Shown here piece after piece: positions 1-23,097 of a stretch of 53,127 bases of DNA. A program made the position numbers and the translations under genes. The stretch's first letter is position 1. Each line of letters opens with the position of its first letter. The stretch comes from an uncultured Methanosarcinales archaeon (lineage in GTDB: Archaea > Nanobdellota > Nanobdellia > Woesearchaeales > JASKKU01). Below the pieces are notes generated by a model. That model made no database searches, had not been told where the DNA came from, and saw only the letters and a program-made list of their open reading frames with translations. Where the stretch lies: the NCBI GenBank assembly GCA_964416905.1, contig CAYQFL010000001.1:39520-92646 (forward strand), written 5' to 3'.

Positions 1-2
1 AG

Positions 3-2666
3 TTTAACGGTCAGGACTGTGATAGCTTAGAAGCTATAGACTGTGAAATCATTGAGTATAATAAAACGGCTAAAAAATTAACTATAGCGATAGATAATCC
101 TGGAGAATATCGTGTAAAAGAAGGGCTTAATGGAGCTATTTCTTTAAAGATATACACTTTTAGAGATAACACTGAATCCACAGACATATATTATCAAGAA
201 CCTGTTTTCTTCAGAGCCAAATACACTTTACCAGTCTACTTTGAAGATTTTGAGAACATAAATTGCTCAATCATTGTTAAAAATGAAAGTGGCATGGTAG
301 TACTCAATGAAGATATGACCCTTAATGCAAGCTACCCAGACTCTAACTTATCCTATGCTATATTCCTAACAAACATTACTGATTCATATTTACCAGTAGG
401 AACATACCATACACAAACGACTTGCCGTCCAAAAAACGGTAGTGGCTACTTTTGGGATCCAAAGACAATTTACAAAGACTTTGAAGTTAAAACAATAAAA
501 ATAAGCGAGAGATACTGGAGCGATACAAAACCTGTACTGCTTTATGATATAACCCAGAGTGAAAACACTACTATGCTAGAGGAAGATGCTAAAAAATATT
601 CCATAAATTTAAATGAAGACGATGATAACAAGAAAACCCTCTATAATAACAACATTTCTTCAGTTTACATTGCTGTGTACCAAGATATTTCTTCTAACGA
701 TACTGTTCTTACACAAAGCAACACAATCAAAGAATTCGTGTGCAACATCTCCTGGGGAGACAACACCTCTGAAATTAAAGCACTAAATGAATCTTTAGAG
801 GAAATCACAATATTACACGAAGAAAAAGGAACAATAACGAATGTTTCCAAAATCAATATCTCAATACTCACTCATAAATATGATTGGCCCGGCGATTATG
901 ATACACATATTCACTGTTATGATCCCGAAGGCATTTATTGGGACTTTTTTGATCAAAAGGAAATAACTATCACTAACAGAAAACCTGTCCTTGCATACGA
1001 AATACCAGATGTAACTTGGTATAAGGACAGCGTTTATTCTCCATATAAATTGGATGATTATTTCTATGACCCTGATGGCGAGAACTTATCATATACTGCC
1101 TTAGAAGTACCAGAAATAGCAATCTATATCTCTAATGATTCTTCTGTTGTTCTTATGCCTGAGAAAGGCTTTGTAGGCTCAAGAATAACATTTTTCACTG
1201 CAATAGATAACTTCGATGCCGCTACCAACTCAAACCTTGTAAATTTAACCGTAATTGGTGAGGAAAAGGAAGAGTACAAAGAGTATGAAGAAGAAAAATC
1301 TTTGCCAGGAGAACCTCCTTTATTACCATTATGTCAGGAGCAGTGGAACTGTACTGAGTGGGGTAAATGTATGCCGTCAGGCATTCAAGTAAGGAAGTGT
1401 TACGATATCAACAACTGTAACACTACTTTCAATAAACCAATTGAATGGAGAACTTGTGTATATACGCCGACTTGCGATGACGGTCTAAAAAACCAAAACG
1501 AAACTGGAGTAGACTGCGGAGGACCTTGTCCGCCATGCCCTTCGTGTAATAATGGTTATCAAGATTGGAATGAAGAAGGCATAGATTGTGGCGGGTATTG
1601 CCCACCATGTCCTACCTGTTATGATGGACTACAAAATCAAGGTGAAGAAGGAATAGATTGTGGAGGACCTTGTCCACCCTGTAGAGAAGAACAGACTCCA
1701 GGAATAGTTCAAACGATTATCATAAACCATCTAAATGAGATAATTATTATTTCAGCTTTGTTAATTGTAACACTTTCATTCGCATCACTCTTATTCAAAA
1801 AAGTTTCTTCATTCAACAGGTTCATCGTTAAAATAGTCAACAAAATAATCTCAGCTCTATCAATCCCTTCATTCACTGAGCAGAACATTTATTCAGAACT
1901 CATCTTTAAAGTTAACAGATTAGAAAGGTTTGCAACAAGAGGCAAACTAAGTGTTATACTTGAGAGAGCAAACGAAATTTTCAAAGAGGTAATTAAGAAC
2001 TTTTTATTGATTGAGGAAGATAAAAGTTACGATGAACTGATAGAAGTAATCTCACACCTTCATTTAAATGAAGTCGATAAATTATTATTACAATATTTAG
2101 CATTAGAATTTGAAAAAGTCAAATTTAGTGATCAAAAAAGTATTTCCAGAAAGAAGTTAATCTCACTAATCAGGAAGATTAAATTGTTAATAGAAAGAAA
2201 CAAACACATTTTACTAGAAGTGCAGCTCAATAAAGAAATTGAGTCTCTTCAAAAAGACATCGAAGAATCATCCAAATCTGAACTTATTGAAAAACGTGTA
2301 CTGCTTAGCTTATTGAGAGAACTATTATTGATTAACGAAAAAATCAAGCAAAGGAAACTGAGAGATGCTATTAGAATCTATAAGAACATAAAGAGGTTGT
2401 ACTCACAACTAAACTTTTGGAACAGGGTCAAAGTATACAATAGAGTTTATGAAACTGTGTTGCGGTTGCAAAAGCTAATCAAAGAGTATAAAGAACTTAA
2501 CCGACAAATCAATACAATGTCCAAACCTCAGAAAGAAGTAACTGCACCAGCAATAACCAAAAGTCCTGAATTAATACAAAATGCATTTAAGGAAAAGTTT
2601 AAATTAAAAAGAATTGGTGAAAAAATAAAGCAGATTTTCAGAAAAAGAGAAAAATCAAAAAAATGA
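3..2666 (+). CDS. Large membrane-anchored surface protein, 5'-truncated by the window edge (Ig/cadherin-like modules, TSP1-like Cys motif, 3 Cys-rich repeats, one TM helix, cytoplasmic helical tail)
   Basis: Frame is open from base 3 (FNGQDCDSLEAIDC...) into the tracked ORF 294..2666, so the real start is outside the window. Contains NRKPVL...DYFYDPDGENLSYT cadherin-like module, CxxxWxCTEWGKC...RKC motif, TM IIIISALLIVTLSFASLLF. Confidence 0.85.
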   Translation, partial: FNGQDCDSLEAIDCEIIEYNKTAKKLTIAIDNPGEYRVKEGLNGAISLKIYTFRDNTESTDIYYQEPVFFRAKYTLPVYFEDFENINCSIIVKNESGMVVLNEDMTLNASYPDSNLSYAIFLTNITDSYLPVGTYHTQTTCRPKNGSGYFWDPKTIYKDFEVKTIKISERYWSDTKPVLLYDITQSENTTMLEEDAKKYSINLNEDDDNKKTLYNNNISSVYIAVYQDISSNDTVLTQSNTIKEFVCNISWGDNTSEIKALNESLEEITILHEEKGTITNVSKINISILTHKYDWPGDYDTHIHCYDPEGIYWDFFDQKEITITNRKPVLAYEIPDVTWYKDSVYSPYKLDDYFYDPDGENLSYTALEVPEIAIYISNDSSVVLMPEKGFVGSRITFFTAIDNFDAATNSNLVNLTVIGEEKEEYKEYEEEKSLPGEPPLLPLCQEQWNCTEWGKCMPSGIQVRKCYDINNCNTTFNKPIEWRTCVYTPTCDDGLKNQNETGVDCGGPCPPCPSCNNGYQDWNEEGIDCGGYCPPCPTCYDGLQNQGEEGIDCGGPCPPCREEQTPGIVQTIIINHLNEIIIISALLIVTLSFASLLFKKVSSFNRFIVKIVNKIISALSIPSFTEQNIYSELIFKVNRLERFATRGKLSVILERANEIFKEVIKNFLLIEEDKSYDELIEVISHLHLNEVDKLLLQYLALEFEKVKFSDQKSISRKKLISLIRKIKLLIERNKHILLEVQLNKEIESLQKDIEESSKSELIEKRVLLSLLRELLLINEKIKQRKLRDAIRIYKNIKRLYSQLNFWNRVKVYNRVYETVLRLQKLIKEYKELNRQINTMSKPQKEVTAPAITKSPELIQNAFKEKFKLKRIGEKIKQIFRKREKSKK
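1470..1685 (+). repeat. Three tandem 72-nt (24 aa) Cys-rich repeats, consensus (T/S)CxxGxxxxxExGxDCGGxCPPC
   Basis: TCDDGLKNQNETGVDCGGPCPPCP / SCNNGYQDWNEEGIDCGGYCPPCP / TCYDGLQNQGEEGIDCGGPCPPCR start at 1470, 1542 and 1614. Confidence 0.95.
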
Positions 2667-5600
2667 ATAATCTTAAGCTTTTTTCGGCGCTTGTAGCAGT
2701 TTTAGCATTAGTTTATGTTTTCACATATAGCTTACCCCCTAATGTCAAAGCAGACATATGGGATAGTTTCTTTAATGGATTCAATAGCATAACTGGATTT
2801 TTAACTGAAGAGGATTATCTTGGAACCTGTTCTGATCCTGTAGGGAATCAAACACCTTATTTTCCCTGCGTTTTACCATCGCAGATAAACCTAACACAGG
2901 GCGATAACTTTCTTTATCAGATATGTTATGCCGACCCGGAAAATGATCCTGTATTGATAAAAGCGGCGCCTGCGCCTGGCGAAGATTCCTGGAACAAGAT
3001 TATCAACAGCATGAACTATAGTGGTTTCATTAACATAACCTTAGACAACAGCGATGTAGGAATTCATAAAGTAATTTATCTTCTACAAGATGCGTGCCAT
3101 TCAGACGATCTAAATAATAAACAAATCATCTATTATGTAAACAACACAAATGATGTTCCAGTCATTGTTGATAAAGCGCCGAACCAAACAGGAGTTACAC
3201 TATTTGAAAATGAGACAGCCTTATTTTCAATAAATGCTACAGACCCCGACCTTTTTGTAGATCAAAGAGTCTTCAATGAAACTTTAAATTACACTTGGAC
3301 TTTAAACAGCTTGATCGTCAAAACAGAAAATGAAACTAAGAATACAAGCTCTAATTATAGCGCGTTCTTTGATTTCTGCAGTGCCGGAACTTGGCAACTA
3401 AGTATTGAAGTCAAAGATAAATCCGGAGAAAAAGATGAGTTCTTATGGACTATCCAAATTAATGATGTAAATAGAGTCCCATATCAAAATGAATCATTCC
3501 CCGAAAATATAACGTTAGATGAAGACAACCCAGCCCTGAATGCCCTAAACATGTACGACTATTTTACAGACCCTGATTTAGAAGAATGCGGAGCTTCAGA
3601 CACAGATTTAAACTTCACATCAGATGTACCTTGGGTTTTTGTAGATAATATCTCAAAGAACTTATCAATAATACCTCCTCAAGACTGGTTTGGAGTCATA
3701 AACGTAAGCTTTAATGTAACTGATGGAATTGCAGAAAACCAGAGTGAAAACCTAACAATAATTGTTAACCCAGTGCCCGATGCGCCAAGAATCGAAAACT
3801 TAACTAATGAAACAGCTGTTGCTAATTTTCCTTTCCATTACAAAATTGACGCCTACGACCCAGATGGAGACAACATCACTTTTTATGATAATACAAGTTT
3901 GTTTGAAATAGATTCAAACAGTGGAGAAATCAGTTTTACTCCGGACATTGCCGATGCAGGATTGCATCACATAAATATAACTGTTGTAGATAACACTAGC
4001 AGACAGACAAGTGCAATATTCAACCTAACAATCATAATAAATCAACCACCAGTTTTCACAAAATGTGAAAATATAACAACTTATGAGAATAACAATACCT
4101 TTGTAGAAGTAGAATACTTTGATCCTGAAGGTGATAATATTAGCGTTTCTGATAATTCAACCCTGTTCACAATAGCCAAAGTTAACAACACATATGCATC
4201 AGCTACGTTCACGCCAACAAATGATGATGTAGGCAACCATACTGTAAACATAACATTAACAGATAGTTGGAATTCTTCCTCGAGCTGTTTAATGGCTATA
4301 GAGATTATTGATGTGAACAATCCACCAGTACTTCAAGAAATAGAAAGCCCTCAGGAATTAAGAATCAATAAAAGTTATTATCTAAAGGTTAATGCTACGG
4401 ATGCTGATGATGATCCTCTAAACTTCTCAGATAATTCCACTGTAATAAACATAAGTGAAACAGGCATAATCAACATAACAAATGTTTCAATACCAGTTGG
4501 GGATTATTTAGTAAACATTAGCGTTTGCGATCCTTACGGATTATGTGATTGGCAGAACGTAATCTTCTCAGTTAAAATAAACCATCCACCACAGTTCATA
4601 GATTTAGATAAAGATTTCAGTTGTGAAGAAGACACACCTTGCTACATTGACTTCAATGCTACTGACCCCGAGAATGACGCAGTATATTTTAGCATTAATG
4701 ATTCTAGTATACTTATCAACAAAACAAGCGGCGAGGTTAACTTCACTAAAAGTGAACCTCAGTTATTGAATATAACGCTGACAGCTACTGATAACTGGAA
4801 TGACTCAAATTCCACTTCAGTTTTAATAAACATCACAGAGAAAAATGATCCCCCTTTAATCCTAGAAGAAAGCACATTAGATATAACTGCTGAAGTTAAT
4901 AGTTTAGTAATCGTTGAAATCTACCTTTATGACGAGGAAAACGACACAATAAACTTAACCCAAAACGATACAAGCCTCTTTAATTTAACCCAAATAAACA
5001 ACACGTATTATAATGCATCATTTGTCCCAACACTCAGTCAAATAGGAGTCCACAAGATTTTATTAAATGCTTCAGATTTAAAATCTAGTACTAGTAAAGT
5101 TTTAACAATAAACATAACACCTGAGAATCTACCTCCAACAATCAATAATAGAACACCGTCTCAATCCTCTCTTGGATTGTATGAAATGGACAGCATATTC
5201 TTTTCAGTGAATGCAAGTGATCCTGAAGGCGAAAATCTACAATATGCATATATCTTAGATAACAAAGTCGTTTCCACACAAAAGAATTATACATATAGAC
5301 CAGATTGGTATTCTGAAGGCACTCATAACTTACAGGTTAATGTTACCGATGAGCATAATAAAACAAATTCAACATCCTGGAGCATATATGTAACCAACCG
5401 TAATAGGAAGCCTATAATGCTAAAAAGGGTATTTAATTCTTCAATAGACCTCGATTGGATTAATGAAAGTATTTTAAATGATGTTGTCTTCAACAATGAA
5501 AATCTTCAGTTTGAATTAGAAAAAGTCAACGGCAATTATACAAGCAACGGCTCAATAATCTTCCCAATAATCTCCTTTAAAACTGATGCTTTCACTGAAC

Positions 5601-6922
5601 CAAGTATTGGAATACAAGCTGAAAACATTATGGTTTCTCCGAATTGCACAACCAATGTTACATACCAGTACAGATTTTCTACCAACAATCCGCCATTAGA
5701 GTTTATTGAAGACCTTGCATGGTCAGAGTGGAGTAGTGAAGATTCAGAGCTTAATGAGAAGACTTTAAATGTATCCACTAGTTCAAAATACTGGCAGATT
5801 AAAGTAAACCTAAGAACTAATTGCACCAACGAGAGCCCTAGAGTAAAAGGTGCTGTTTTTTCTTTCAAACCTGCAACAGTAGATGTATTTCAAGGCGTAG
5901 CTGAAGCTCAATGGATTTATCTACCTGATTTTGTATATGACCCAGATAAGGATGATAAGTTAAGTTATAACGCTTCTTCGGTCATTCCAGGCATAGAAGT
6001 TTTCCCAGACCCTGAAGAAGAGCCTTGGCCTAATACTGGCTGGCTCTACCTATCTACACCAGATTACTTTGCCGGGAAGACCAGCATAAATCTAAGTGTA
6101 AAAGATGACCATAATGATGAAGTAAACGATTTGTTCCCAATAAATGTATTAGAAAGACCTTCAGAGGTTGGTACAAGGATTGAATACAAAATAAAAACTA
6201 AGACCGAGATTCAATACGAAGAAAAGATTGTTGAAAAAGAAGTTCCAAGATATGAATCTTTTAATCTGATTGTTCCGGAAAAAATAACTTTGTATCCAAA
6301 CGATTCTATTGTTGTTCCAATTACTTTAGACAACTATGGCAACAAAACCTTGAACGAAGTCAGGCTTTATGCAAACAGTTCCAGAGATGACGTTGACATT
6401 TTCCTTACGCAAGATTACTTTAAAGTGATCAAATCAGAAAGCCAAGAGAAAACTGAATTAATAGTAACAACTAAAAATATATATGGAGGTTTTGATATTG
6501 TTGTAACTGCAGAAATACAAGACCCGCCATTCAACGATACTGCCAAAATAATAATGGCAACTTTAGAGAAAGGCGAACATAATTCTTCTCAACTTTACAC
6601 AAAAGTATCTTTTACCAGGGATTTACTTAAATCCAACGAACAATGTTTAGAACTAAATGAAATGGTTAAAGAAGCTGAAAACTTGATTTCCCAAGGCAAA
6701 TATTCTTCTGCAGAACAGCTATTACAATCAACTATTGAAGCCTGCAAATATTTAGTAAGTACTAAACAGAGTAAAGAGGAACTTAAAGTTGAGCAAAGAC
6801 CTATTAAGTTTGAGATCTCTTTGAAAAACAATACGTTCATCTTGATAACCATAATTAGTATTTCGTTCATATTGCTGGTAATTATACTATATTGGTTAAC
6901 AGTAGTTCCAAGAAAGAGATAA
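2663..6922 (+). CDS. Giant surface glycoprotein/adhesin (1419 aa) with tandem cadherin/Ig-like repeats and C-terminal TM anchor
   Basis: N-terminal signal peptide, about 10 modules bounded by N(x)PP / DP(D/E)xD motifs, more than 50 N-x-S/T sequons, C-terminal TM FILITIISISFILLVIILYWL followed by PRKR. ATGA overlap with the upstream stop. Confidence 0.85.
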   Translation: MNNLKLFSALVAVLALVYVFTYSLPPNVKADIWDSFFNGFNSITGFLTEEDYLGTCSDPVGNQTPYFPCVLPSQINLTQGDNFLYQICYADPENDPVLIKAAPAPGEDSWNKIINSMNYSGFINITLDNSDVGIHKVIYLLQDACHSDDLNNKQIIYYVNNTNDVPVIVDKAPNQTGVTLFENETALFSINATDPDLFVDQRVFNETLNYTWTLNSLIVKTENETKNTSSNYSAFFDFCSAGTWQLSIEVKDKSGEKDEFLWTIQINDVNRVPYQNESFPENITLDEDNPALNALNMYDYFTDPDLEECGASDTDLNFTSDVPWVFVDNISKNLSIIPPQDWFGVINVSFNVTDGIAENQSENLTIIVNPVPDAPRIENLTNETAVANFPFHYKIDAYDPDGDNITFYDNTSLFEIDSNSGEISFTPDIADAGLHHINITVVDNTSRQTSAIFNLTIIINQPPVFTKCENITTYENNNTFVEVEYFDPEGDNISVSDNSTLFTIAKVNNTYASATFTPTNDDVGNHTVNITLTDSWNSSSSCLMAIEIIDVNNPPVLQEIESPQELRINKSYYLKVNATDADDDPLNFSDNSTVINISETGIINITNVSIPVGDYLVNISVCDPYGLCDWQNVIFSVKINHPPQFIDLDKDFSCEEDTPCYIDFNATDPENDAVYFSINDSSILINKTSGEVNFTKSEPQLLNITLTATDNWNDSNSTSVLINITEKNDPPLILEESTLDITAEVNSLVIVEIYLYDEENDTINLTQNDTSLFNLTQINNTYYNASFVPTLSQIGVHKILLNASDLKSSTSKVLTINITPENLPPTINNRTPSQSSLGLYEMDSIFFSVNASDPEGENLQYAYILDNKVVSTQKNYTYRPDWYSEGTHNLQVNVTDEHNKTNSTSWSIYVTNRNRKPIMLKRVFNSSIDLDWINESILNDVVFNNENLQFELEKVNGNYTSNGSIIFPIISFKTDAFTEPSIGIQAENIMVSPNCTTNVTYQYRFSTNNPPLEFIEDLAWSEWSSEDSELNEKTLNVSTSSKYWQIKVNLRTNCTNESPRVKGAVFSFKPATVDVFQGVAEAQWIYLPDFVYDPDKDDKLSYNASSVIPGIEVFPDPEEEPWPNTGWLYLSTPDYFAGKTSINLSVKDDHNDEVNDLFPINVLERPSEVGTRIEYKIKTKTEIQYEEKIVEKEVPRYESFNLIVPEKITLYPNDSIVVPITLDNYGNKTLNEVRLYANSSRDDVDIFLTQDYFKVIKSESQEKTELIVTTKNIYGGFDIVVTAEIQDPPFNDTAKIIMATLEKGEHNSSQLYTKVSFTRDLLKSNEQCLELNEMVKEAENLISQGKYSSAEQLLQSTIEACKYLVSTKQSKEELKVEQRPIKFEISLKNNTFILITIISISFILLVIILYWLTVVPRKR

Positions 6923-6949
6923 ACTCTAATAAATTAAAACATCAAAACT

Positions 6950-7600
6950 TTATTTGTTTTGCTTGGCGCGTTTAATATCTAAGAACAAGTTTAAGATATC
7001 TCCTTTTACTTCCTTTTGATCATTCTCATCAAGTAATTCATAAGCTCGCTTTATTTTATTATAAAGTTTTTCTGCGTCCTGAACTCTGTTTAAATCCAGA
7101 TAAGAGTAAGCTTTTATGATCATTTTTTGTATATCTAACTTCGTGACTCTTTTACGTATTGCTTTCAAAAGAAGCAAAATTAAACTTTTTTTCTTTTTAG
7201 GTAAAGGATTACTACTCTTTTTGTTCGCTTCCCTATGTAAATGAAGCTGGTTCAAAATAACAAGTATTTCATCAATGATTGATAAAAGCGTGTTCTTATC
7301 CACCACTTCAGGAGCATATTCTATAGAGGTGATTCTTTCATTAAAGGAAATCATCTTTTGTTTTATTGCATAAGGAATGGTTTTTTTATTCTTTATTTCA
7401 TGATTGATTTCCTCAAAAGTTGTTGAGTACTTAACATGCAACAGTTTTGAATAAAATCTCCTAATAATATGAAACAAGTTTATTTTAAGTTGTTCAGAAT
7501 CTAGGTCTCTTGACCTTTTTTTTAAATCCGCTAACTCTAATGAGAATTTATTGAAAGGATCCTCTTTAGATTTAGAACGCGCAATTTTACGTTTAAACAT
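6950..7600 (-). CDS. Soluble all-helical protein, DUF4381/DUF4129-like, resembling the cytoplasmic tail of CDS 3..2666
   Basis: 216 aa ORF with ATG start, divergent from moxR. Motifs IIRRFY..STTFEEI...SIEYA and AEKLYNKIKRAYELL are mirrored in the ORF1 tail. Confidence 0.7.
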   Translation of the reverse strand: MFKRKIARSKSKEDPFNKFSLELADLKKRSRDLDSEQLKINLFHIIRRFYSKLLHVKYSTTFEEINHEIKNKKTIPYAIKQKMISFNERITSIEYAPEVVDKNTLLSIIDEILVILNQLHLHREANKKSSNPLPKKKKSLILLLLKAIRKRVTKLDIQKMIIKAYSYLDLNRVQDAEKLYNKIKRAYELLDENDQKEVKGDILNLFLDIKRAKQNK

Positions 7601-7695
7601 ACGTATTCTTCAGGGAAACTCATTTTTAAAAATTTGTTGTTTCTCGCTCGTTAAAAAACAGATTTAAAAGGGTTAAGAGTTTTAATATCACTCAT

Positions 7696-8685
7696 ATGGT
7701 TTTATCAATAACAAAAGAAGAAGCAAATAAAATCAAAAATGAGGTAGACTTAATAAAAAAAGAAATCAGTAAAGTTTTTATTGGTCAGCGCGAGATTATT
7801 GATGGTTTCATTACATGTTTATTATCAAATGGTTCTGTTCTGATTGAAGGTGTTCCGGGTTTAGGAAAAACTCTTTTGGCAAGAACAATTGCTAAAGTCT
7901 TGGGAGTACAATTCTCGAGGATTCAATTTACACCAGACCTTCTACCTACAGATATCATTGGTATTACAACTTATGAAGAGGGCAGAGGTTTCTATGTCTT
8001 AAAAGGACCAATCTTCGCAAACATTGTTCTGGCAGACGAAATCAACAGAGCTCCACCTAAAGTTCAATCTGCGTTGCTAGAAGCCATGCAGGAAAAACAG
8101 GCAACAATCTCTAAGGAAACGTTTGAATTACCAAAACCATTCTTTGTTCTGGCTACAGAGAACCCATTAGAAAGTTTGGGTACTTATCCACTACCTGATG
8201 CTCAGTTAGATAGATTCCTGTTTAAAATTTTCATAGGTTATCCTTCTCTTGAAGAAGAAAGGCGGATTCTAGATACAAACATCACTTCTAAAAAGTTTGA
8301 AGATTACGATCTTAAAGCGGTTTCCTCTGCTGACAGAATCCTTGAATTGCAGGAAAAGCTAAAGAATGTCTTTGTCGATGAAAAAATCAAAGAATATATT
8401 GTTAAAATTGTTGATGCTACCAGAAATCCTGATAAGTATAAGCTCAAATTAGGCAAATACATACAATACGGCGCATCCCCTAGGGCATCAATTGCTTTTT
8501 ATCTAAGCAGTAAAGTGGATGCTGTTACAGTTTTCGGAAAGAATTATGTAACCCCTTATAATGTAAAGAGGGTTGCAAAACACATTTTAAATCACAGAGT
8601 AGCTGTTAACTTCGAGGGCGAAACAAACAACATAAGCTCTTTTGACATAATTGAAGAGATTATCACCAAAATTCCAGTGCCATAA
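7696..8685 (+). CDS. moxR: MoxR family AAA+ ATPase
   Basis: GVPGLGKT, RIQFTPDLLPTDIIG, LADEINRAPPKVQSALLEAMQE, ATENPLE, GASPRAS. Confidence 0.95.
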   Translation: MVLSITKEEANKIKNEVDLIKKEISKVFIGQREIIDGFITCLLSNGSVLIEGVPGLGKTLLARTIAKVLGVQFSRIQFTPDLLPTDIIGITTYEEGRGFYVLKGPIFANIVLADEINRAPPKVQSALLEAMQEKQATISKETFELPKPFFVLATENPLESLGTYPLPDAQLDRFLFKIFIGYPSLEEERRILDTNITSKKFEDYDLKAVSSADRILELQEKLKNVFVDEKIKEYIVKIVDATRNPDKYKLKLGKYIQYGASPRASIAFYLSSKVDAVTVFGKNYVTPYNVKRVAKHILNHRVAVNFEGETNNISSFDIIEEIITKIPVP

Positions 8686-8727
8686 TAACCAAGCATCATT
8701 TTACTTAAAATAAACTAAGTGATTCTC

Positions 8728-9603
8728 ATGCTAAAAGAGATAAAGGCAAATCTGAAGCCTTTAATCAAAAAATTAGAAATCCAGAGCCAAAAAAGTGTTT
8801 TCGGGGAGTTTACTGGCGAATACAGAACACATTTTAAAGGTCGAGGTCTGGATTTTGATGGGTTTAGAGATTACCTGCCTTCTGATGATGCATCAATGAT
8901 AGATTGGAGGGCAAGCTTAAGAGCTCAACACCTGCTAGTAAGAGTGTATAAAGAAGAAAGGAACCTTGATGTTTATATTGTGTTTGACACCAGCACTAGC
9001 ATGTGTTTCTCTTCAACAGATAAATTAAAAGCTGAGTTTGCAGCAGAAGTTGTTGCGAACCTTGCGTTTGGAGCAATTCAAGTGGGGGACAACGTTAGCT
9101 TAATTATGTTCAATGATGAAGTTAAGGCTTTCCTTGCACCAAAGCAAGGCAAATCGCAGTTTAGCAAGATAATCTCCTTGCTATCAGACCCAAAAAATTA
9201 CTTTGGGAACCTTAACTTTGAAGCAGCTATTTCAAGTTTAAAAAGTGCAATGAGAAAACCAGGAGTAATAATTATTGTTTCAGATTTTATAGGTTTCCCT
9301 GAAAACTGGGACTCATTAATTGCAGGGTTTGCAAAGTATTCAAGGATTTTAGGGATCATGATACGAGATCCTAGAGATGATGAAATCCCAAAAGAGTTAG
9401 GCGAATTAGTGCTAAGCGGTCCATACAGCAAAGAAGTTGTCAAATTTAACTCATGGATTCTGGCTGAAAGATTCCGGGAAGAAGTAATCAAACAAAAAGA
9501 AGATATTTTTAAAAAAATAAAAGCGCTTGAAGGTTCAATCCTAGAAATTAAAACAACCGAACCATTCGATAAAAAGATAAGGTCCTTTTTCGCTAGAGGC
9601 TAA
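8728..9603 (+). CDS. DUF58 family (vWA-like) MoxR partner
   Basis: FKGRGLDFDGFRDYLPSDDASMIDWRASLR, EERNLDVYIVFDTSTSM, IIVSDF. ORF track starts at GTG 8719; ATG at 8728. Confidence 0.9.
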   Translation: MLKEIKANLKPLIKKLEIQSQKSVFGEFTGEYRTHFKGRGLDFDGFRDYLPSDDASMIDWRASLRAQHLLVRVYKEERNLDVYIVFDTSTSMCFSSTDKLKAEFAAEVVANLAFGAIQVGDNVSLIMFNDEVKAFLAPKQGKSQFSKIISLLSDPKNYFGNLNFEAAISSLKSAMRKPGVIIIVSDFIGFPENWDSLIAGFAKYSRILGIMIRDPRDDEIPKELGELVLSGPYSKEVVKFNSWILAERFREEVIKQKEDIFKKIKALEGSILEIKTTEPFDKKIRSFFARG

Positions 9604-9610
9604 TATAAAA

Positions 9611-10567
9611 ATGGTCCAAATTGTATTTCAGAATGCAGAATTTTTATGGTTCTTGATTATTTTAGTGTGGATCATAGTAACTCATTTATTTATTTCTATA
9701 AAAGTAAAACAGAAAGCATTCCTTTTTGCCAACTTCGAAGTCCTTAAAAAGGTTGTATTCGAAGATAAAACCGAACCAAAAACAAACAAAATCAATTTAT
9801 CTTTAGATATTCTATTTCTAAGATTATTGACACTTACTTTCTTAATATTGTCTCTATGTCATCCTGTTGTGTGGTATGAGGGGAATGTTGCAAACAGGAA
9901 TTATGTACTAGCCATAGACTCATCAAGTTCTATGCTAGCTGATGACTTAAATCCAAATAGATTTGAGGTTGCGAAAAGTCACAGCAAATTCTTGGTAAAC
10001 AGAATAAAATCATTAAATTCGAAAGTAGGTATAGTCTCATTTGCAGGTTCATCCTTAATTGTTTCTGAGTTATCTGATGATTATGAAAAATTATTATCAA
10101 AGATTGATTCTATGGACGTATTAAACATCCCGGGAACAGATTTAGGCGAAGCCATAATAACCTCAGTAAACATTCTTCAATCTGAAACAAAACCTGGAGC
10201 AGTCATTTTAATCACGGATGGAAGGTCAACAGTAGGAACAAACCTCGAACAGGCAGTTTATTATGCAAGGGAGCGTCAAATTCCTGTATACACAATAGGT
10301 GTAGGTACCAAAGAAGGCGGTAAATTCATACCTGCTGGGTTCACAAAGCTCGACGAAGATCAATTGAAACAGATTGCTGAACAAACCGATGGAAAGTTTT
10401 TCAGAGCTGAAACAAAAGAAGATTTAGGAGAAAGTCTAAAAGAGATTGTTGAAATTGAAAAAGGTAAAGTTCCTTTAGATTTATCGATACCATTTATGCT
10501 TATAGGCTTAATCTTACTAAGCATCGAATGGGGAGTTCTAAACACAAAACGTAGGACCTTGCCATAA
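9611..10567 (+). CDS. BatA-like membrane vWA domain protein
   Basis: N-terminal BatA-like TM (FQNAEFLWFL), MIDAS LAIDSSSSM, NRFEVAK, GTDLGEAI, LITDG, YTIGVG, C-terminal TM. Confidence 0.9.
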   Translation: MVQIVFQNAEFLWFLIILVWIIVTHLFISIKVKQKAFLFANFEVLKKVVFEDKTEPKTNKINLSLDILFLRLLTLTFLILSLCHPVVWYEGNVANRNYVLAIDSSSSMLADDLNPNRFEVAKSHSKFLVNRIKSLNSKVGIVSFAGSSLIVSELSDDYEKLLSKIDSMDVLNIPGTDLGEAIITSVNILQSETKPGAVILITDGRSTVGTNLEQAVYYARERQIPVYTIGVGTKEGGKFIPAGFTKLDEDQLKQIAEQTDGKFFRAETKEDLGESLKEIVEIEKGKVPLDLSIPFMLIGLILLSIEWGVLNTKRRTLP

Positions 10568-10629: not shown

Positions 10630-10703
10630 GGGGCGGTAGCTCAGCCTGGGAGAGCACATGGCTGAAGACCATGGTGTCCGGGGTTCAAATCCCCGCTGCC
10701 CCA
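10630..10703 (+). tRNA. tRNA-Phe(GAA)
   Basis: GGGGCGG/CTGCCCC acceptor stem, CATGG-CTGAAGA-CCATG anticodon arm, GGTTCAAATCC T arm. No encoded CCA. Confidence 0.97.
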
Positions 10704-13095: not shown

Positions 13096-15120
13096 ATGGC
13101 AAATTCAGAATCTGAATTAAAAAAATCTCTTAATTTACCTATTTTAATTATTCTCGCTATAACCTCAGTTGTTGGTTCAGGCATATTCTTTGTTCCAGCA
13201 ATTAGCGTTCAAATGAGCGGTGGAAGCGCTATTCTTGCTTGGACAATCCTTGCCATATTAAGTTTAATCATCATCTTATACTTTGCAGAATTAGCTAGCA
13301 TGTTCCCTTCTTTAGGTGGAGTTTACGAATTTGCTAAACAAGCATACAACAAATTCGCTGGCTTTTTAGTCGGTTGGACCGAATGGATCATTGGAAATTT
13401 GACAACGGCAATGCTTGTAGTTTCAGCGTTACAATTCATAATTCAACAGCAAACTGTTGTGATTTTAGGTTTGTCTTTAAGTAGTCAGCTTTTCAAAATC
13501 ATCTTGGGGATAACAATTATTGCAATCTTTAATTATGTAGCGTTTAGAGGTATTGAATTCAGTTCTAAATTTGTCATGACTTTCGGCATAATTCAGATGA
13601 TTCTGATTTTAGTGGTAATCTTCTTGGCATTCTTCTCAGGAAACTTTTCATTAAATAATTTCGAACCTTTCTTTTTATCTCAAGATACTCCACTAAATTT
13701 TACCAACTTGTTCATAACCTTAATCTTTATCTCTGATATTTTCTTGGGTATGGAAGGAATTTTCTCACTGTCTGAAGAAACAAAGAATCCTTCAAAAGTT
13801 GTACCAAAAGCAGTCATTATAGCTCAAATAATTCTTTCTCTTATATCCATAACCTCCTTAATTGCGATCATTGGGTTCTTTGGGGTTGAAAACTTAGTAA
13901 ACAACACTCTTGAATCTTCAACGAATCCAGGATGGGTTTACTTAAATATTGGTTATAGATTCTTCGGCGAAAACGGCGCTACTTTGTTTTCAGTTTTGAT
14001 TTTCCTTAGCATTATTGGTTCTGCTGCAGATTGGATAATAAGTGCACCAAGGTTGTTAATGGCAATGGCTAGAGATAAATTGTTCATTCCCCAATTAAAC
14101 AAAGTCCACAAAAAACATAAAACACCGTACAGAGCAATAATCTTTCAAACCATTATCATGAGCTTATTCACAGTCATTGGCTTAACAAAATCCGGTTATC
14201 AAACTCTAGTTCAGATTCTCATGCCATTAAGTTTTATGATAGTCATCTCAATGCTTTTTGCGGTAACCTATTTAAGATTTAGAAAACCACACATAGAAAG
14301 ACCTTTCAAAGCTCCGCTTGCTAAAGCTGGTCCAATCATCACAGCATTTATTCTTCTAATAATCCTAAGTGTCTGGATAAGATTTCAACCAAATGCAACA
14401 ACATTATTCGGAGTAGCTGCTTCTTTCGTGTTAATAGGATTCCCATTCTATTTATTAATGCAGTTTTATACTAATGAAAACATTAAGACGGCTTTTAATG
14501 AACATCTAACCAGAGCATACATACTCTTAGAATCAATAAATTTGCCAAAAAGACTGCGCAAAGAGATTTTAACATTAATGGGGGATTTAAGGAACAAAAC
14601 AGTAGTCGAATATGGTTGCGGCGTGGGCACGCTTACAAAAGAATTAGTCAAAGAAAGTAAAAATTCAACCAAGATTATAGCTGTTGATCAATCCATAAAG
14701 AACCTGAATATTGTTAAAAAGAGGATTAACAAAATCACAAACAAGAAGGGAATAGTAGTTAAACAGTTTCAAACACTGCTGGATCCTAAGCTTGAATTAA
14801 AATTTGATTCAAAAGCAGATATCTTAATTTTTAATGCCGTCCTCGATTCTATTCCTGACTTAGATAGCTTTCTTGTAAAAGTACGACAAAAACTCGCAAG
14901 TTCTGGACAGATTTATTTCATAGAGTTTTGCGACCTTTTCGGATTTTTACCAAATCCCCCTTATTTAGTTGACGAAAAAGAACTTGAAAACAAGTTTAAG
15001 AAACACGGTTTTGCTGTTAGGTTAATGAAAAGGCCTGGTCTTTTATGGAACTATCTCATAATCTATGGGTTTAAAGTAGACATCGAAAACACAGACAATA
15101 CAACTATCAGCGTAATCTAA
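13096..15120 (+). CDS. APC-family amino acid permease fused to a C-terminal class I SAM-dependent methyltransferase domain
   Basis: TM1 VVGSGIFF, GGVYEFA, EETKNPSK, about 12 TMs; then VVEYGCGVG (aa 505-511), IIAVDQS, DILIFNAVL, GQIYFIEF. Confidence 0.85.
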   Translation: MANSESELKKSLNLPILIILAITSVVGSGIFFVPAISVQMSGGSAILAWTILAILSLIIILYFAELASMFPSLGGVYEFAKQAYNKFAGFLVGWTEWIIGNLTTAMLVVSALQFIIQQQTVVILGLSLSSQLFKIILGITIIAIFNYVAFRGIEFSSKFVMTFGIIQMILILVVIFLAFFSGNFSLNNFEPFFLSQDTPLNFTNLFITLIFISDIFLGMEGIFSLSEETKNPSKVVPKAVIIAQIILSLISITSLIAIIGFFGVENLVNNTLESSTNPGWVYLNIGYRFFGENGATLFSVLIFLSIIGSAADWIISAPRLLMAMARDKLFIPQLNKVHKKHKTPYRAIIFQTIIMSLFTVIGLTKSGYQTLVQILMPLSFMIVISMLFAVTYLRFRKPHIERPFKAPLAKAGPIITAFILLIILSVWIRFQPNATTLFGVAASFVLIGFPFYLLMQFYTNENIKTAFNEHLTRAYILLESINLPKRLRKEILTLMGDLRNKTVVEYGCGVGTLTKELVKESKNSTKIIAVDQSIKNLNIVKKRINKITNKKGIVVKQFQTLLDPKLELKFDSKADILIFNAVLDSIPDLDSFLVKVRQKLASSGQIYFIEFCDLFGFLPNPPYLVDEKELENKFKKHGFAVRLMKRPGLLWNYLIIYGFKVDIENTDNTTISVI

Positions 15121-19987: not shown

Positions 19988-20112
19988 TGCCGGCGCGGGG
20001 CTTTGAACCCCGGACCTCTAGATGTCCCAGTTAGAGCTTTTATCATCGCAAAAAGCTCAGCACTCATAAAACTTATGAGTCTAGCGCTCTGACCAGGCTG
20101 AGCTACGCCGGC
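19988..20112 (-). tRNA. tRNA-Met(CAT), elongator type, with 50-nt canonical 37/38 intron (20024..20073)
   Basis: GCCGGCG/CGCCGGC acceptor stem. BHB: CTCA/TGGG central helix, bulges TAA and ACA, outer GTT/AAC helix. Mature length 75 nt. Met rather than Ile2 is inferred from the acceptor stem. Confidence 0.92.
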
Positions 20113-22187: not shown

Positions 22188-23057
22188 TCACTTTCTACGA
22201 GGCATAGATGCTTGGGCACCACCTTGCGGTCCAGGGCTTTGAGCTAATCTTGTATGCAACTTATCTAAAATTTTCTTTTGAACTGCATTTAATCTTTCTC
22301 TAACTCGCTCAGCAATATTAGCGTTCAACTGGTTAAGCTGCTGCTCATGAGCTGTCCTCATCTGTTTAACTCTTTCCTGGATTTGTTCAATCTGTTGAGC
22401 TTGATTTCTTATAACTTCTCTTAATTGATTCTTTAATTGTTCCTTGTTTGTTAATGCTGATTCATCAAATCTTACATCAGGTTTATTTAGCATAGCTCTA
22501 ACAATTTTTTCATTATGAGCTCTGACATGTTGTGTAATCATTTCCTTAACAGCTCTAATTTTTTCTTGGATTTTCTGTTGTGCGTTTTCATTAACTTTAG
22601 TTCTAATCTGAGCAAGCTCTTCTCCTGTAAAATCTTCATGCAAAATTGTGCTAAATTGTCTTATTAAAGACCTGCTCTCATTAAGCAAAATCACAAAATC
22701 TGATGCTAAATTTTGCAGAGTTTCTTGGTTTACTTCTTCAGGAATTGTTGACACAGTTTCATTAACCTGATCAGCTAAAGCTCTCATATTTTCAAGCATA
22801 AGCTCCAACTCAGAAGAATCGTAATCAGGTTTAACTTCCTTAATTGCATTTATTACTTCCTCGCCCTTAATAATCTGGGTTTCAAGATTCTTATTTAATT
22901 GTAACAACCTAACCTTTGCACCAAAACTTGTTGTGAATGCCTTTAAAGCTTCATCCTCAATAGCATTATCTTCTGCATAAACTGAAGGCATTATTGCTAT
23001 TGAAAACACCGCAAACAATGCAACCAGCATCAAAACAATATTCAATTTCTTTTTCAT
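22188..23057 (-). CDS. Secreted all-helical Gln/Glu-rich coiled-coil protein
   Basis: GGAGGTGA RBS before ATG at 23057. Signal peptide MKKKLNIVLMLVALFAVFSIAIMPSVYA, heptad-rich body. Confidence 0.8.
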   Translation of the reverse strand: MKKKLNIVLMLVALFAVFSIAIMPSVYAEDNAIEDEALKAFTTSFGAKVRLLQLNKNLETQIIKGEEVINAIKEVKPDYDSSELELMLENMRALADQVNETVSTIPEEVNQETLQNLASDFVILLNESRSLIRQFSTILHEDFTGEELAQIRTKVNENAQQKIQEKIRAVKEMITQHVRAHNEKIVRAMLNKPDVRFDESALTNKEQLKNQLREVIRNQAQQIEQIQERVKQMRTAHEQQLNQLNANIAERVRERLNAVQKKILDKLHTRLAQSPGPQGGAQASMPRRK

Positions 23058-23097
23058 GTTATTCACCTCCGAAAGATTTAAAACATCTCAAATCTAC

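Follow-up and report, generated by a model that had tools for sequence, protein, structure and literature searches.

The six-gene cluster g1-g2, g3 (divergent) and moxR-DUF58-batA lies at the left end of the window, that is, the whole stretch of 53,127 nt that was analysed and to which all positions refer. There is about an even chance that this cluster of Woesearchaeota-type DPANN is an archaeal derivative of the bacterial Bat/MoxR(MRP)-DUF58-BatA envelope system, with g1 and g2 as built-in surface subunits or dedicated clients. The new elements are the homology between g3 and the cytoplasmic tail of g1, the remote relation of both to DUF4381 and the unannotated C-terminal module of g2 (g2C). 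The general theme was already foreshadowed in 2015 (PMC5898192). Every gene described in an earlier, sequence-only reading of this DNA was found where it had been placed, and the assignment of the source organism to the DPANN holds, the nearest relatives being Woesearchaeota/Nanoarchaeota MAGs.

The linkage of the surface-protein genes with moxR-DUF58-vWA, proposed in that reading, was present in a synteny check across DPANN genomes and is strongly kept in both search directions; the outer flanks are not. Of the 25 species-representative DPANN loci whose upstream DNA reaches at least 3 kb, 22 have a g2-like gene when the search starts from MoxR, mostly in the order g1-g2-(g3)-moxR-DUF58-batA. 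When it starts from the g2C motif alone, moxR lies downstream in 37 of the 48 metagenome loci with at least 3.5 kb of downstream DNA (35 of those with the full trio), and g1 is present in 31/35 loci with sufficient upstream DNA; the metagenome loci were counted without de-duplication (L096 equals L150 in gene map, and L108 equals L112 over the common genes). Unbiased clustering recovers the six families in 68-109 of 113 loci, the next commonest family occurring in 27. The topA, permease and rpS7 genes are kept only in L001, a 92%-identical relative, and the six genes remain together over an evolutionary distance at which the outer flanks have been reshuffled. Through inversions the cluster is kept as a unit or in adjacent pieces (L017, L095). 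The gap between g2 and moxR measures 10-90 nt in one sub-clade, which implies a single operon, and L089 carries a collinear, topologically consistent fusion of g1 and g2. Each locus has one copy of the cluster, which is found in most sampled species. The arrangement is far beyond chance: dozens of independent genomes and contigs show it. The linkage is strong, not absolute: no g2 is found upstream of moxR in L005, L020 and L032, no moxR within 10 kb of g1/g2 in L096/L150, L102, L129, L149 and L161, and L167 has g1-g2-batA without moxR and DUF58. The genes form three transcription units in the window (g1-g2; g3; moxR-DUF58-batA). The cluster sits amid housekeeping genes and its architecture is stable.

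The g1 gene (3-2666; forward strand, as are all the genes and domains except g3) encodes a type-I membrane glycoprotein, according to the TM prediction. The left window edge truncates the gene, whose reading frame is already open at nt 3. The ORF list gives it as 294-2666, at least 887 aa are encoded in the window, and the L001 orthologue has 1140 aa with an N-terminal signal/anchor sequence. The ectodomain, which holds 21 of the 21 NxS/T sequons, is followed by a TM helix (1716-1802, Kyte-Doolittle maximum 2.73) and a cytoplasmic tail of ~290 aa. An Ig-like (Big_9/cadherin-like) domain at 975-1277 gives a weak Big_9 match in the window protein and clear Big_9/Cadherin_5 matches in the homologues; it lies inside the most conserved ectodomain stretch (q~296-490 across loci, 82-90% identity to L001). 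The membrane-proximal Cys-rich region (1323-1700), delimited by a regular expression and the Cys positions, has no Pfam match. It contains three tandem repeats, C..G......E.G.DCGG.C..C, at 1473-1538, 1545-1610 and 1617-1682, and is kept in the homologues at q~440-560. Within the tail, a DUF4381-like domain, the same as in g3, was located at 1956-2483 by jackhmmer, hhalign and reciprocal HMM ranking.

The two giant membrane-protein genes are coupled as had been described (g1 being incomplete in the window), for the g2 ATG overlaps the g1 stop as ATGA. The g2 gene (2663-6922) encodes a surface glycoprotein of 1419 aa, recognised from Pfam, NCBIfam and sequons, with a signal/anchor (2663-2740), Ig/cadherin/PKD-like repeats, a conserved C-terminal module and a TM anchor. 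Its 84 sequons correspond to 59 per 1000 aa, against a median of ~5 in the other window proteins. The Pfam matches are Big_9 (2e-19), Cadherin_4, He_PIG and PKD, and NCBIfam gives the tandem-95 repeat. For the earlier label "cadherin-like", generic bacterial Ig-like repeats are the best reading. Species differ considerably in the N-terminal regions and in how many Ig repeats there are and of what kind. Judging by its matches, the constant part of g2 is the unannotated membrane-proximal module g2C (6215-6919), not the Ig/cadherin repeats. Domain-level matches to g2C occur in all loci at q~1191-1412 (E 1e-17 to 1e-32), with 90% identity to L001. The module consists of a beta-sandwich, a helical hairpin (6584-6793) and a TM helix (6830-6904). 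The hairpin carries the motif F.RDLL..N.(E/Q)C.EL and two invariant Cys, and the invariant residues in alignment A2 are F133, D136, L137, C144, E146, L147 and C177. The AlphaFold model (pLDDT 68.6) has beta strands at residues 16-119, then helices and the TM segment. Foldseek returned generic Ig/macroglobulin-like matches only; g2C has no Pfam match, and a relation to BatD could not be detected. A short paralogue of g2C (355 aa), with the acidic hairpin motif retained, lies in a MoxR-less cassette (f215-f407-f215-f407-f150-g2C), so that g2C has no intrinsic need for MoxR or BatA.

The g3 gene (6950-7600, reverse strand) encodes a soluble, all-helical protein of 216 aa (AlphaFold pLDDT 82, nine helices) and is divergent to moxR-DUF58-batA, as the sequence-only reading had it. 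The 95-bp spacer between g3 and moxR (7601-7695), read directly from the sequence, is AT-rich, with TATA-like runs ~25-30 nt upstream of both start codons, and is presumed to be a bidirectional promoter region. The protein has a DUF4381-like N-domain (7211-7558) and, in its C-terminal part, a TPR-like helical hairpin (6956-7141); no TM helix, Pfam match or PDB fold match was found for it. Its family comprises 734 cluster representatives, all unannotated, with TPR matches in a few members, and shares the motif LVR.FF...L...YEFTYEEL.

The idea of an adaptor domain put forward earlier has substance, since one domain is common to g3 and the g1 tail. The jackhmmer profile seeded on g3 matches g1 aa 652-827 (5e-20), and hhalign relates the g1 tails to the g3 family with 99.2% (E 8e-20). 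On this profile evidence the two are homologous, g3 being a paralogue of the g1 tail. The archaeal proteins escape the DUF4381 model of Pfam itself, and a first, shallow hhalign run against DUF4381 gave 17% only. The two independent runs of g3 against DUF4381 (74.8%, E 2.6e-5) and of the g1 tails against the bacterial DUF4381 tails (85.3%, E 5.9e-6) share the same register. Furthermore, reciprocal HMM searches of 3572 archaeal ORFs ranked only members of the family in the first 20 places (best E 9e-9). By profile comparison the domain, which has a near-invariant T-x-E-E motif, is a remote homologue of bacterial DUF4381.

The three Pfam assignments made earlier for moxR, DUF58 and batA are solid. 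The moxR product (7696-8685) is an AAA+ ATPase of the MoxR-proper type (AAA_3 1.6e-59, AAA_lid_2) with Walker A at 7849-7872, and also matches Pfam bpMoxR (3.8e-11); 81 archaeal homologues conserve Walker A/B, sensor-1 and the Arg residue at 98-100%. The DUF58 protein (8719-9603; DUF58 1.8e-41, VWA_2 4e-9) is a cytoplasmic VWA-fold protein with no predicted TM helix. Its MIDAS-like DTSTS lies at 8986-9000 (D90 100%, S92 94% and S94 89% conserved). The BatA-type membrane protein (9611-10567) consists of two N-terminal TM helices (BatA_N, 30.7 bits against a cut-off of 25.9), a VWA domain (9905-10432; 1.8e-19) with the MIDAS DSSSS at 9917-9931 (97-100% conserved) and a C-terminal TM helix, and also matches NCBIfam VWA_BatA_Lepto (1.8e-31). 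Hence the catalytic and both MIDAS motifs are intact, with Walker A/B, sensor, Arg and MIDAS residues 89-100% conserved. The TM prediction and the positive-inside rule place the BatA-type VWA domain outside the cell together with the ectodomains of g1 and g2; MoxR, DUF58, g3 and the g1 tail are predicted to be cytoplasmic. The VWA domain of the BatA homologue BB0173 was experimentally shown to be exposed to the periplasm (PMC5700661). The archaeal system, unlike the bacterial one, has neither outer membrane nor periplasm, and all the ectodomains would therefore be exposed at the cell surface.

The bacterial Bat (Bacteroides aerotolerance-type) operon has the order MoxR(MRP)-DUF58-[BatD-like ectodomain-TM-DUF4381]-BatA-BatB-BatC-BatD-BatE. 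The order of the MoxR-proper ATPase (~50% identical to that of the bacterial loci compared), DUF58 and the BatA-type membrane VWA protein is common to both systems, and in both the BatA VWA lies outside the cytoplasmic membrane (PMC5700661; predicted for the archaeal side). Both also have a protein that crosses the membrane once, between a beta-rich ectodomain and a DUF4381-type domain in the cytoplasm, and a further membrane-anchored protein of beta-sandwich repeats, BatD in bacteria and g2 in the archaeal locus. On the other hand, the DUF4381-type gene is placed between DUF58 and BatA in bacteria, whereas g1 lies upstream of moxR and its ectodomain is much larger, Cys-rich and Ig-containing. 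The archaeal locus also has the extra soluble paralogue g3 and a single BatA-type gene, and lacks BatB and the BatC/BatE TPR-SH3 proteins. No BatD homologue was detectable in the cluster; g2 is two to three times the size of BatD, with an unrelated conserved anchor module. The view that the surface proteins are archaeal substrates newly added to a Bat module does not stand, because in bacterial Bat operons, too, the DUF4381 protein is built as [beta ectodomain]-TM-[DUF4381]. By this layout and the DUF4381 homology, g1 probably corresponds to a standard Bat subunit whose ectodomain has been enlarged. Given the homology of g3 with the g1 tail, the DUF4381 relation and g2C, g1 and g2 are more likely to be built-in subunits or clients of a Bat-like machine than separate substrates.

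The linkage and the Bat-related cytoplasmic domain suggest a single machine across the membrane by which a structure on the cell surface is built or reshaped. The inferred physical contacts, direction of action and biological role would be as follows. In the cytoplasm, a MoxR hexamer would act through its VWA-fold partner DUF58, whose MIDAS site would engage the DUF4381-like domain in the g1 tail, a domain that is also encoded as the free paralogue g3; the T-x-E-E motif is a candidate acidic MIDAS ligand. The g3 protein may then be a soluble adaptor, or a competitor that tunes the engagement of the g1 tail by DUF58. Outside, the MIDAS-bearing VWA domain of BatA may bind the membrane-proximal part of g1 (the Cys-rich repeats) and/or of g2 (the beta-sandwich and the disulfide-stapled hairpin). 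Intracellular ATP hydrolysis would thereby be coupled to a process in which a g1-g2 surface structure with heavy N-glycosylation, possibly an attachment fibre or an envelope layer, is assembled, anchored or conformationally remodelled. A mechanistic template is provided by NorQ/NorD and CbbQ/CbbO, in which the MoxR hexamer is paired with a VWA/MIDAS adaptor docking on an acidic patch of a dedicated target. By the established MoxR/VWA principle, as in NorQD, a finger of the VWA protein sits inside the AAA+ pore, with the MIDAS bound to an acidic patch of the membrane-protein target, NorB (PMC9976466), and MoxR-DUF58 could act on T-x-E-E likewise. This analogy is a mechanistic inference only: these pairs are of other MoxR subfamilies, they act on enzymes in need of metal insertion or inhibitor release instead of on surface proteins, and a further VWA protein outside the cell is absent.

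A core envelope or S-layer-like structure fits just as well as a putative host adhesin, on account of the ordinary divergence, the extreme sequon density and the near-universal single-copy presence. It is accordingly possible, though clearly below an even chance, that g1 and g2 form a general S-layer-like glycoprotein coat and that MoxR-DUF58-BatA serves envelope biogenesis or maintenance, with the same machine but no host-specific adhesins. The signal peptide, Ig-like repeats, membrane-proximal helical stalk and C-terminal TM anchor of g2, and its sequon density of ~10x that of the other window proteins, agree with a coat. So does the identity of g1, g2 and g3 to L001 (70-78%, against 79% for topA and 72% for the permease), in which the arms-race variability expected of host-contact adhesins is not seen. 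The single copy per locus in most sampled species and the link that Makarova et al. 2015 (PMC5898192) drew for other archaea between MoxR/vWA and predicted S-layer and Ig-like proteins point the same way. However, the variation of the N-terminal regions and Ig repeats among species is compatible with ligand diversification, and g1/g2 and the MoxR module each occur without the other in some loci. These linkage exceptions in both directions, the three transcription units and the occurrence of g2C elsewhere without MoxR would also suit neighbouring, perhaps co-regulated envelope genes that shared ancestry keeps together in small genomes, with no physical coupling. This is quite unlikely, as the six genes stay together where the outer flanks are reshuffled, the cluster outlasts inversions whole or in adjacent pieces (L017, L095), g1 bears a domain standard in bacterial Bat operons, and the sub-clade operon fusion and the g1-g2 gene fusion point to functional coupling.

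An outside-in sensor is unlikely too: its ectodomains would detect contact or a ligand and signal to MoxR/DUF58 by way of the TM helix and DUF4381-like tail of g1, with g3 as soluble output or regulator and no assembly involved. The large g1 ectodomain, single TM helix and conserved cytoplasmic domain with a divergently encoded free paralogue would suit such a role, sensing has been proposed for a Borrelia BatA-like pair (PMC5700661), and the bifidobacterial PFNA cluster has MoxR-DUF58 beside a kinase and an FN3 surface protein (PMC8430577). Nevertheless, family clustering of the loci gave no kinase, transcription factor or other output domain that recurs in the cluster, and the MoxR/VWA pairs characterised to date are remodelling or maturation chaperones, not signal transducers (PMC9976466). 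The bpMoxR match recalls the described MoxR-vWA conflict systems (PMC7159879), but a ternary defence system with the surface proteins as invader sensors is already disfavoured and has hardly any probability left. The AAA_3 match is far stronger (1.6e-59 against 3.8e-11), no beta-propeller, effector or NTPase-sensor gene is present in the cluster, PADLOC gives generic P-loop noise only, and the surroundings are housekeeping genes around a stable architecture.

Returning to the Bat-like machine, the same general idea as in the earlier reading was expressed for the predicted arCOG01314-associated secretion/membrane-remodelling complex (Makarova, Galperin & Koonin 2015, PMC5898192). The six cluster proteins have no Pfam match to its arCOG01314/DUF4350 GldG-like, DUF1616/pfam07760 or secreted Ig+vWA fusion components, and the vWA proteins of the present cluster are of the DUF58 and BatA types. 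That work precedes most DPANN genomes, and the g1, g2C and g3 families lie outside its coverage. The PFNA cluster, pkb2-fn3-aaa-atp(MoxR)-duf58-tgm (PMC8430577), likewise has a gene for a large secreted/surface beta-sandwich (FN3) glycoprotein directly upstream of MoxR(MRP)-DUF58, and its authors speculate on help from MoxR in the folding of the FN3 protein and on a role of the cluster in mediating host interaction (PMC8430577). It belongs to another domain of life, has a Ser/Thr kinase and a transglutaminase-like membrane protein instead of the BatA-type protein, and lacks a DUF4381-like subunit; the surface proteins are alike in type, with no claim of homology. By analogy only, the parts also resemble those of eukaryotic integrins: an extracellular MIDAS VWA/I-domain, membrane-adjacent Cys-rich repeats, an Ig-like stalk, single-pass TM helices and a short/adaptor-binding cytoplasmic tail under control from inside. 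The archaeal parts are spread over three polypeptides, with homology claimed for the VWA fold at most, and control would come from an AAA+ motor instead of talin or kindlin.

The cluster opens with g1, the first of two giant surface glycoprotein genes, listed at 294..2666 (+). Its reading frame is open from nucleotide 3, so that the gene is cut by the window edge; the orthologue in L001, the locus of the closest relative, encodes 1140 aa and starts with a signal/anchor sequence. The second giant gene, g2 (2663..6922, +; 1419 aa), has its start codon inside the g1 stop as ATGA. The 216-aa gene g3 (6950..7600, −) is convergent with g2 and divergent from moxR across 95 bp. The moxR (7696..8685, +), DUF58 (8719..9603, +) and BatA_N+VWA (9611..10567, +) genes follow, each with a strong Pfam match and separated by 33 nt and 7 nt, respectively. 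A tRNA-Phe (10630..10703) and the convergent topA form the cluster boundary. The genes described in the sequence-only reading are all borne out, except that g1 is incomplete at the edge.

The moxR product matches the Pfam families AAA_3 (200 bits, cut-off 27) and AAA_lid_2 (36.3 bits, cut-off 22.7). The Walker A motif GxPGxxKT, the Walker B DE, the sensor-1 N156 and the arginine R263 are 98-100% conserved across 81 archaeal homologues, the window protein included. The protein is a MoxR-proper AAA+ ATPase, genetically paired with a VWA-fold partner. The DUF58 protein (PF01882, 142 bits against a cut-off of 23.4) contains a DTSTS (DxSxS) motif that is 89-100% conserved. The BatA-type protein matches BatA_N at 30.7 bits (cut-off 25.9) and VWA at 71 bits, its NCBIfam BatA match lies below the cutoff, and the full MIDAS (DxSxS...T...D; D103, S105, S107, T176 and D203) is 97-100% conserved. 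Motif conservation of the three proteins, computed over 66-81 archaeal homologues, is 89-100% overall. Transmembrane (TM) prediction, read with the positive-inside rule, puts MoxR, DUF58, g3 and the g1 tail in the cytoplasm, and the BatA VWA domain together with the g1 and g2 ectodomains outside. The same orientation, with the VWA domain exposed outside the cytoplasmic membrane, was found by experiment for the bacterial BatA-like BB0173 (PMC5700661). The MoxR-vWA-beta-propeller ternary conflict system (Kaur et al. 2020) was considered and rejected, with a bpMoxR score of only 42.9 bits against 200 for AAA_3. Propeller or effector genes were not found at the cluster, and a reading as a defence system was discarded, PADLOC being negative.

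The relatives of the window MoxR, drawn from a species-representative genome set, fall into three groups. The nearest is L001 (92% identical), followed by 32 proteins at 53-62% identity from MAGs of Woesearchaeota/Nanoarchaeota; bacterial proteins, at about 50% or less, and one from a Hydrothermarchaeota archaeon (L039, 51%) make up the rest. The g3-family members bearing names are Woesearchaeota or Nanoarchaeota, and their phylum belongs to the kingdom Nanobdellati, which we take to be the current name for DPANN. Together these placements uphold the DPANN attribution of the sequence-only reading. The records of L001, L005, L006, L007, L015, L016, L028 and L036 include MAGs titled ‘uncultured Methanosarcinales archaeon’ or ‘Alphaproteobacteria bacterium’ whose gene content is clearly woesearchaeal; such labels in public records are probably taxonomic mislabels.

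The proposal that surface-protein genes recur beside moxR-DUF58-vWA across DPANN was followed in both directions, and the linkage is found in each. Anchored on MoxR, a g2-like gene is present in 22 of the 25 DPANN loci for which at least 3 kb of upstream sequence was available, the usual order being g1-g2-(g3, divergent)-moxR-DUF58-batA. A g2-like gene was found neither at the Hydrothermarchaeota locus nor at any bacterial MoxR locus examined. Anchored on the g2 C-terminus motif alone, and with metagenome loci counted without de-duplication, moxR is found in 37 of 48 loci with at least 3.5 kb downstream (the full trio in 35), and g1 in 31 of the 35 loci having enough upstream DNA. Unbiased clustering of all ORFs places the six families of the cluster in 68-109 of 113 loci, the next commonest family occurring in 27. 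The neighbouring topA, permease and rpS7 genes recur only in L001, which indicates that the cluster was retained while its surroundings were reshuffled. Inversions leave the pieces adjacent (e.g. L017, L095). In one sub-clade g3 is absent and the gap between g2 and moxR is 10-90 nt, which implies a single operon. Exceptions occur on both sides: the MoxR module is present without g2 in L005, L020 and L032, and g1/g2 are present with moxR absent within 10 kb in L096/L150, L102, L129, L149 and L161.

Several loci show unusual arrangements. In L167 (2842-11657), batA comes straight after g1 and g2, and the 10 kb downstream contains neither moxR nor DUF58; the locus hints at a membrane and surface core of the system made up of g1, g2 and BatA. 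In L089 (808-7863), one ORF of 2351 aa is a collinear g1-g2 fusion running from signal, ectodomain, TM helix and DUF4381-like tail to a second TM helix (equivalent to the g2 signal-anchor), Ig repeats, the conserved g2 C-terminal module (g2C) and a final TM helix. The fusion is topologically consistent; it may be genuine, of the Rosetta-stone kind, or may reflect a one-base assembly error at the place where the two genes usually overlap by ATGA. Directly downstream of batA, a gene for a multi-TM protein of ~140 aa, resembling by eye a divergent PAP2/DUF212-type protein, occurs in 14 loci (including L009 6750-7175, L016 4519-4932 and L099 13900-14322); it is absent from the window, where tRNA-Phe and topA come after batA. 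Farther away, 0.5-5 kb downstream of batA, 13-18 loci carry an ATPase gene, by eye of ABC-transporter type, together with a gene for a beta-rich protein of ~415 aa with a signal peptide and a C-terminal TM anchor (e.g. L006 8827-10966, L007 13807-15789, L022 15920-17907). The pair may represent a further envelope module, or simply the synteny of a sub-clade.

The main new result concerns the g3 family. In archaeal loci, a g3-seeded profile finds only two kinds of ORF: one is the divergent gene lying upstream of moxR, the other the g1-like genes, whose products match in their cytoplasmic tail (aa 652-827 in the window g1). Direct BLAST of g3 against g1 returned a 20-aa motif only (E 0.2) and the homology emerged only with profiles, the g1 tails matching a 66-member g3 alignment at 99.2% (hhalign, E 8e-20). 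By these profiles, g3 and the g1 tail are the same domain, and g3 is a soluble paralogue of the g1 cytoplasmic domain. The family comprises 734 cluster representatives at E ≤1e-3, and the few members checked are unannotated or ‘hypothetical protein’. AlphaFold gives g3 a confident all-helical fold of two lobes, for which a fold search found no PDB counterpart (best E 0.2). In many species the g3 homologue is far longer (600-840 aa) and carries three or four tandem C-terminal TPR-like hairpins after a single DUF4381-like N-domain, as in L006 3378-5630, L008 3475-5751, L015 7404-9464, L135 8366-10774 and L144 9312-11831; TPR scores at the C-terminal hairpin in only 2 of the 66 members.

DUF4381 is the cytoplasmic domain of a standard Bat-operon protein, whose gene lies between those of DUF58 and BatA in the bacterial loci. 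This bacterial protein has a signal peptide and a BatD-like beta ectodomain, which a TM helix joins to the cytoplasmic DUF4381. The archaeal ‘Y.LVR.FF..yL..YEFTYEEL’ aligns with the bacterial ‘Y..LS.IlR.YL.RF..a.E.TTEEF’, and ‘LS..EY’ with ‘DLVKFA’, in one register throughout. The hhalign support against DUF4381 grows with alignment depth, from 17% for a first shallow alignment to 74.8% for g3 (E 2.6e-5) and 85.3% for the g1 tails (E 5.9e-6). In a reciprocal profile test on decoy-rich ORF sets, the top 20 of 3572 archaeal ORFs found by the bacterial DUF4381 profile are all g3/g1-tail members (best E 9e-9), and of the 10 best of 3319 bacterial ORFs found by the g1-tail profile, 8 are DUF4381 genes, compared with 0.8% in the background. 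The Pfam DUF4381 model (PF14316) matches neither g3, nor the 66 family members, nor six g1 homologues, even at relaxed E-values. Pfam and NCBIfam, searched at relaxed thresholds across 23 and 66 family members, return nothing for g1 or g3. The relationship at the profile level is thus one of remote homology, not Pfam membership. The position typical of DUF4381, directly cytoplasmic to a single TM helix that follows a beta-rich ectodomain, is occupied by the g1 tail and not by the soluble g3. Because its tail is homologous to DUF4381, g1 is the archaeal counterpart of the standard Bat-operon subunit, with a greatly enlarged ectodomain. The adaptor domain suggested by the sequence-only reading is therefore real as the domain shared by g3 and g1, whereas the surface proteins, called ‘substrates’ there, are better described as integral Bat-type subunits or clients, g1 carrying the DUF4381-type tail.

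The conserved core of g1 comprises, besides the TM helix and the tail, an Ig-like domain and a Cys-rich region in which the repeat C..G......E.G.DCGG.C..C occurs three times. In g2, Ig/cadherin/PKD-type repeats differ in number and sequence among species; the window protein matches Big_9 (70.7 bits, three stretches), Cadherin_4 (37.7 bits) and a tandem-95 repeat (1.6e-21). The domain matches thus give repeated Ig-like domains (Big_9, Cadherin_4/5, He_PIG, PKD) in a secreted protein, and ‘adhesin’ is a label that g1/g2 take from domain type only. The constant part of g2 is its final ~220 aa, recovered in every locus (E 1e-17 to 1e-32). This g2C module has a beta-sandwich, then a helical hairpin, in which F, D, L, C, E, L and C (two cysteines among them) are invariant, and a TM anchor. 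Its AlphaFold model is of moderate quality (pLDDT 68.6), Foldseek returns generic Ig/macroglobulin-like sandwiches only, and Pfam and NCBIfam have no match for the g2 C-terminus even at relaxed thresholds. A BatD Pfam match (PF13584) was found in neither g1 nor g2, and homology of g2C to BatD was rejected, as hhalign against 29 bacterial BatD proteins reached 0.9% with only TM helices aligned.

The g2C module also occurs away from the motor. In about 15 of 27 loci, three families (~215, ~407 and ~150 aa) are encoded ahead of g1 and in its orientation (L003 104-1754, L012 2-2920, L018 529-3312, L096 136-2705). By eye, in one example of each, they show an apparent N-terminal hydrophobic anchor and a beta-rich body, and they are without precomputed Pfam annotation in L081-L086. 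The same families and a 355-aa g2C protein form a MoxR-less cassette, f215-f407-f215-f407-f150-g2C (L081 6384-11071, L084 1508-6281, L086 1496-6168, also L158 and L163). A strict tie between g2C and MoxR is rejected, given this 355-aa paralogue. The g2C-type proteins thus resemble the terminal parts of an older cassette of surface proteins, relative to which the MoxR-linked version appears to have gained g1, g3 and the motor. In L001, the 1.5 kb available ahead of g1 showed none of the three families, which may therefore be absent from the lineage of the window too.

Among known systems, the bacterial Bat operon is the closest, sharing the MoxR, DUF58 and BatA core and the DUF4381-type subunit. 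The latter is encoded upstream of moxR, as g1, in the archaeal cluster and between DUF58 and BatA in bacteria, and the archaeal protein is recognised only by custom profiles. BatB, BatC, BatD and BatE are absent from the archaeal cluster (each archaeal locus examined has only one BatA-like gene and no second VWA protein, and TPR or SH3 genes of the BatC/BatE type were not found), whereas g2, g3 and the giant ectodomains are new there. In other archaea, a MoxR/GvpN ATPase and vWA proteins have been linked with Ig-like and S-layer-like membrane proteins, and a part in assembling and regulating complexes was suggested for them (Makarova, Galperin & Koonin 2015, PMC5898192). The defining parts of that arCOG01314 system, DUF4350 (GldG-like) and DUF1616, differ from those of the DPANN cluster, whose six proteins have no Pfam match to either. 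In bifidobacteria, the PFNA cluster has an FN3 surface protein beside MoxR-DUF58 (PMC8430577). Literature searches combining DPANN or Woesearchaeota with MoxR, von Willebrand and cadherin, or on DUF4381, found no description of the DPANN cluster.

The template for the mechanism is the established principle of MoxR/VWA pairs, exemplified by NorQD: the VWA ‘finger’ occupies the pore of the AAA+ protein, and through its MIDAS the partner docks on an acidic patch of its dedicated target, in some cases a membrane protein (PMC9976466). By analogy, MoxR-DUF58 would engage the DUF4381-like domain, the T-x-E-E motif of which is its most conserved feature from bacteria to archaea, and g3 would modulate this engagement. 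On the other face of the membrane, the external BatA MIDAS may hold membrane-proximal parts of g1 and/or g2. ATP hydrolysis would thereby be coupled to assembly, anchoring or remodelling of the glycosylated g1-g2 surface structure. The L089 fusion and the L167 g1-g2-batA locus offer hints in support of this mechanism.

What the surface structure does for the cell is a separate question. Adhesion during host attachment is a candidate role of g1/g2. On the other hand, several features argue for a core envelope or S-layer-like coat, namely near-universal single-copy presence, an extreme glycosylation potential (both ectodomains are very rich in sequons, with 59 per 1000 aa in g2 where the other proteins of the window have a median near 5) and ordinary rates of divergence, since the surface genes are 70-78% identical to those of L001, compared with 79% for topA and 72% for the permease. 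The divergence figures speak against fast-evolving adhesins, a reading that was rejected. However, the N-termini and repeat arrays vary among species, which leaves room for ligand diversification. A more elaborate form of the adhesion role, which we regard as improbable, is an ATP-powered, integrin-like ‘inside-out’ switch. MoxR-DUF58 would grip the g1 tail, g3 would act as a soluble decoy or adaptor, and the motor, acting across the membrane and via the BatA MIDAS domain, would toggle the conformation or anchoring of the giant g1-g2 fibres. If true, an episymbiotic Woesearchaeon could attach to and release its host on demand, and the remodelling of surface proteins across the membrane would emerge as the long-sought generic function of Bat/MoxR-proper systems.

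DPANN archaea depend on cell-cell contact and, to our knowledge, their surface machinery is almost wholly uncharacterised. The cluster identifies a conserved, motor-linked surface structure in these organisms and defines three unannotated families, the g3/g1-tail domain, the g2C anchor module and the g1 Cys-rich core. MoxR-proper/DUF58/BatA (‘Bat’) systems are, as far as we know, among the most widespread prokaryotic AAA+ modules without a known client. The DPANN variant may provide an unusually clear candidate, because the module is genomically linked to two giant surface proteins, one of which is joined to it by the shared DUF4381-type cytoplasmic domain. This linkage and the common domain make the client question directly testable.

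The remaining genes of the window are archaeal housekeeping genes (e.g. thermosome, FttA, proteasome, Hef, RNR and HisRS), amid which a 292-aa ORF without a Pfam match lies at 22188-23066 (−). The 674-aa ORF at 13096-15120 (+) has an unusual architecture, kept in L001, in which AA_permease_2 (1.2e-43) is fused to a C-terminal SAM-methyltransferase domain (Methyltransf_23/31). A 125-nt Rfam tRNA match (55 bits) at 19988-20112 (−), uncalled by ARAGORN, is presumably an intron-containing archaeal tRNA.
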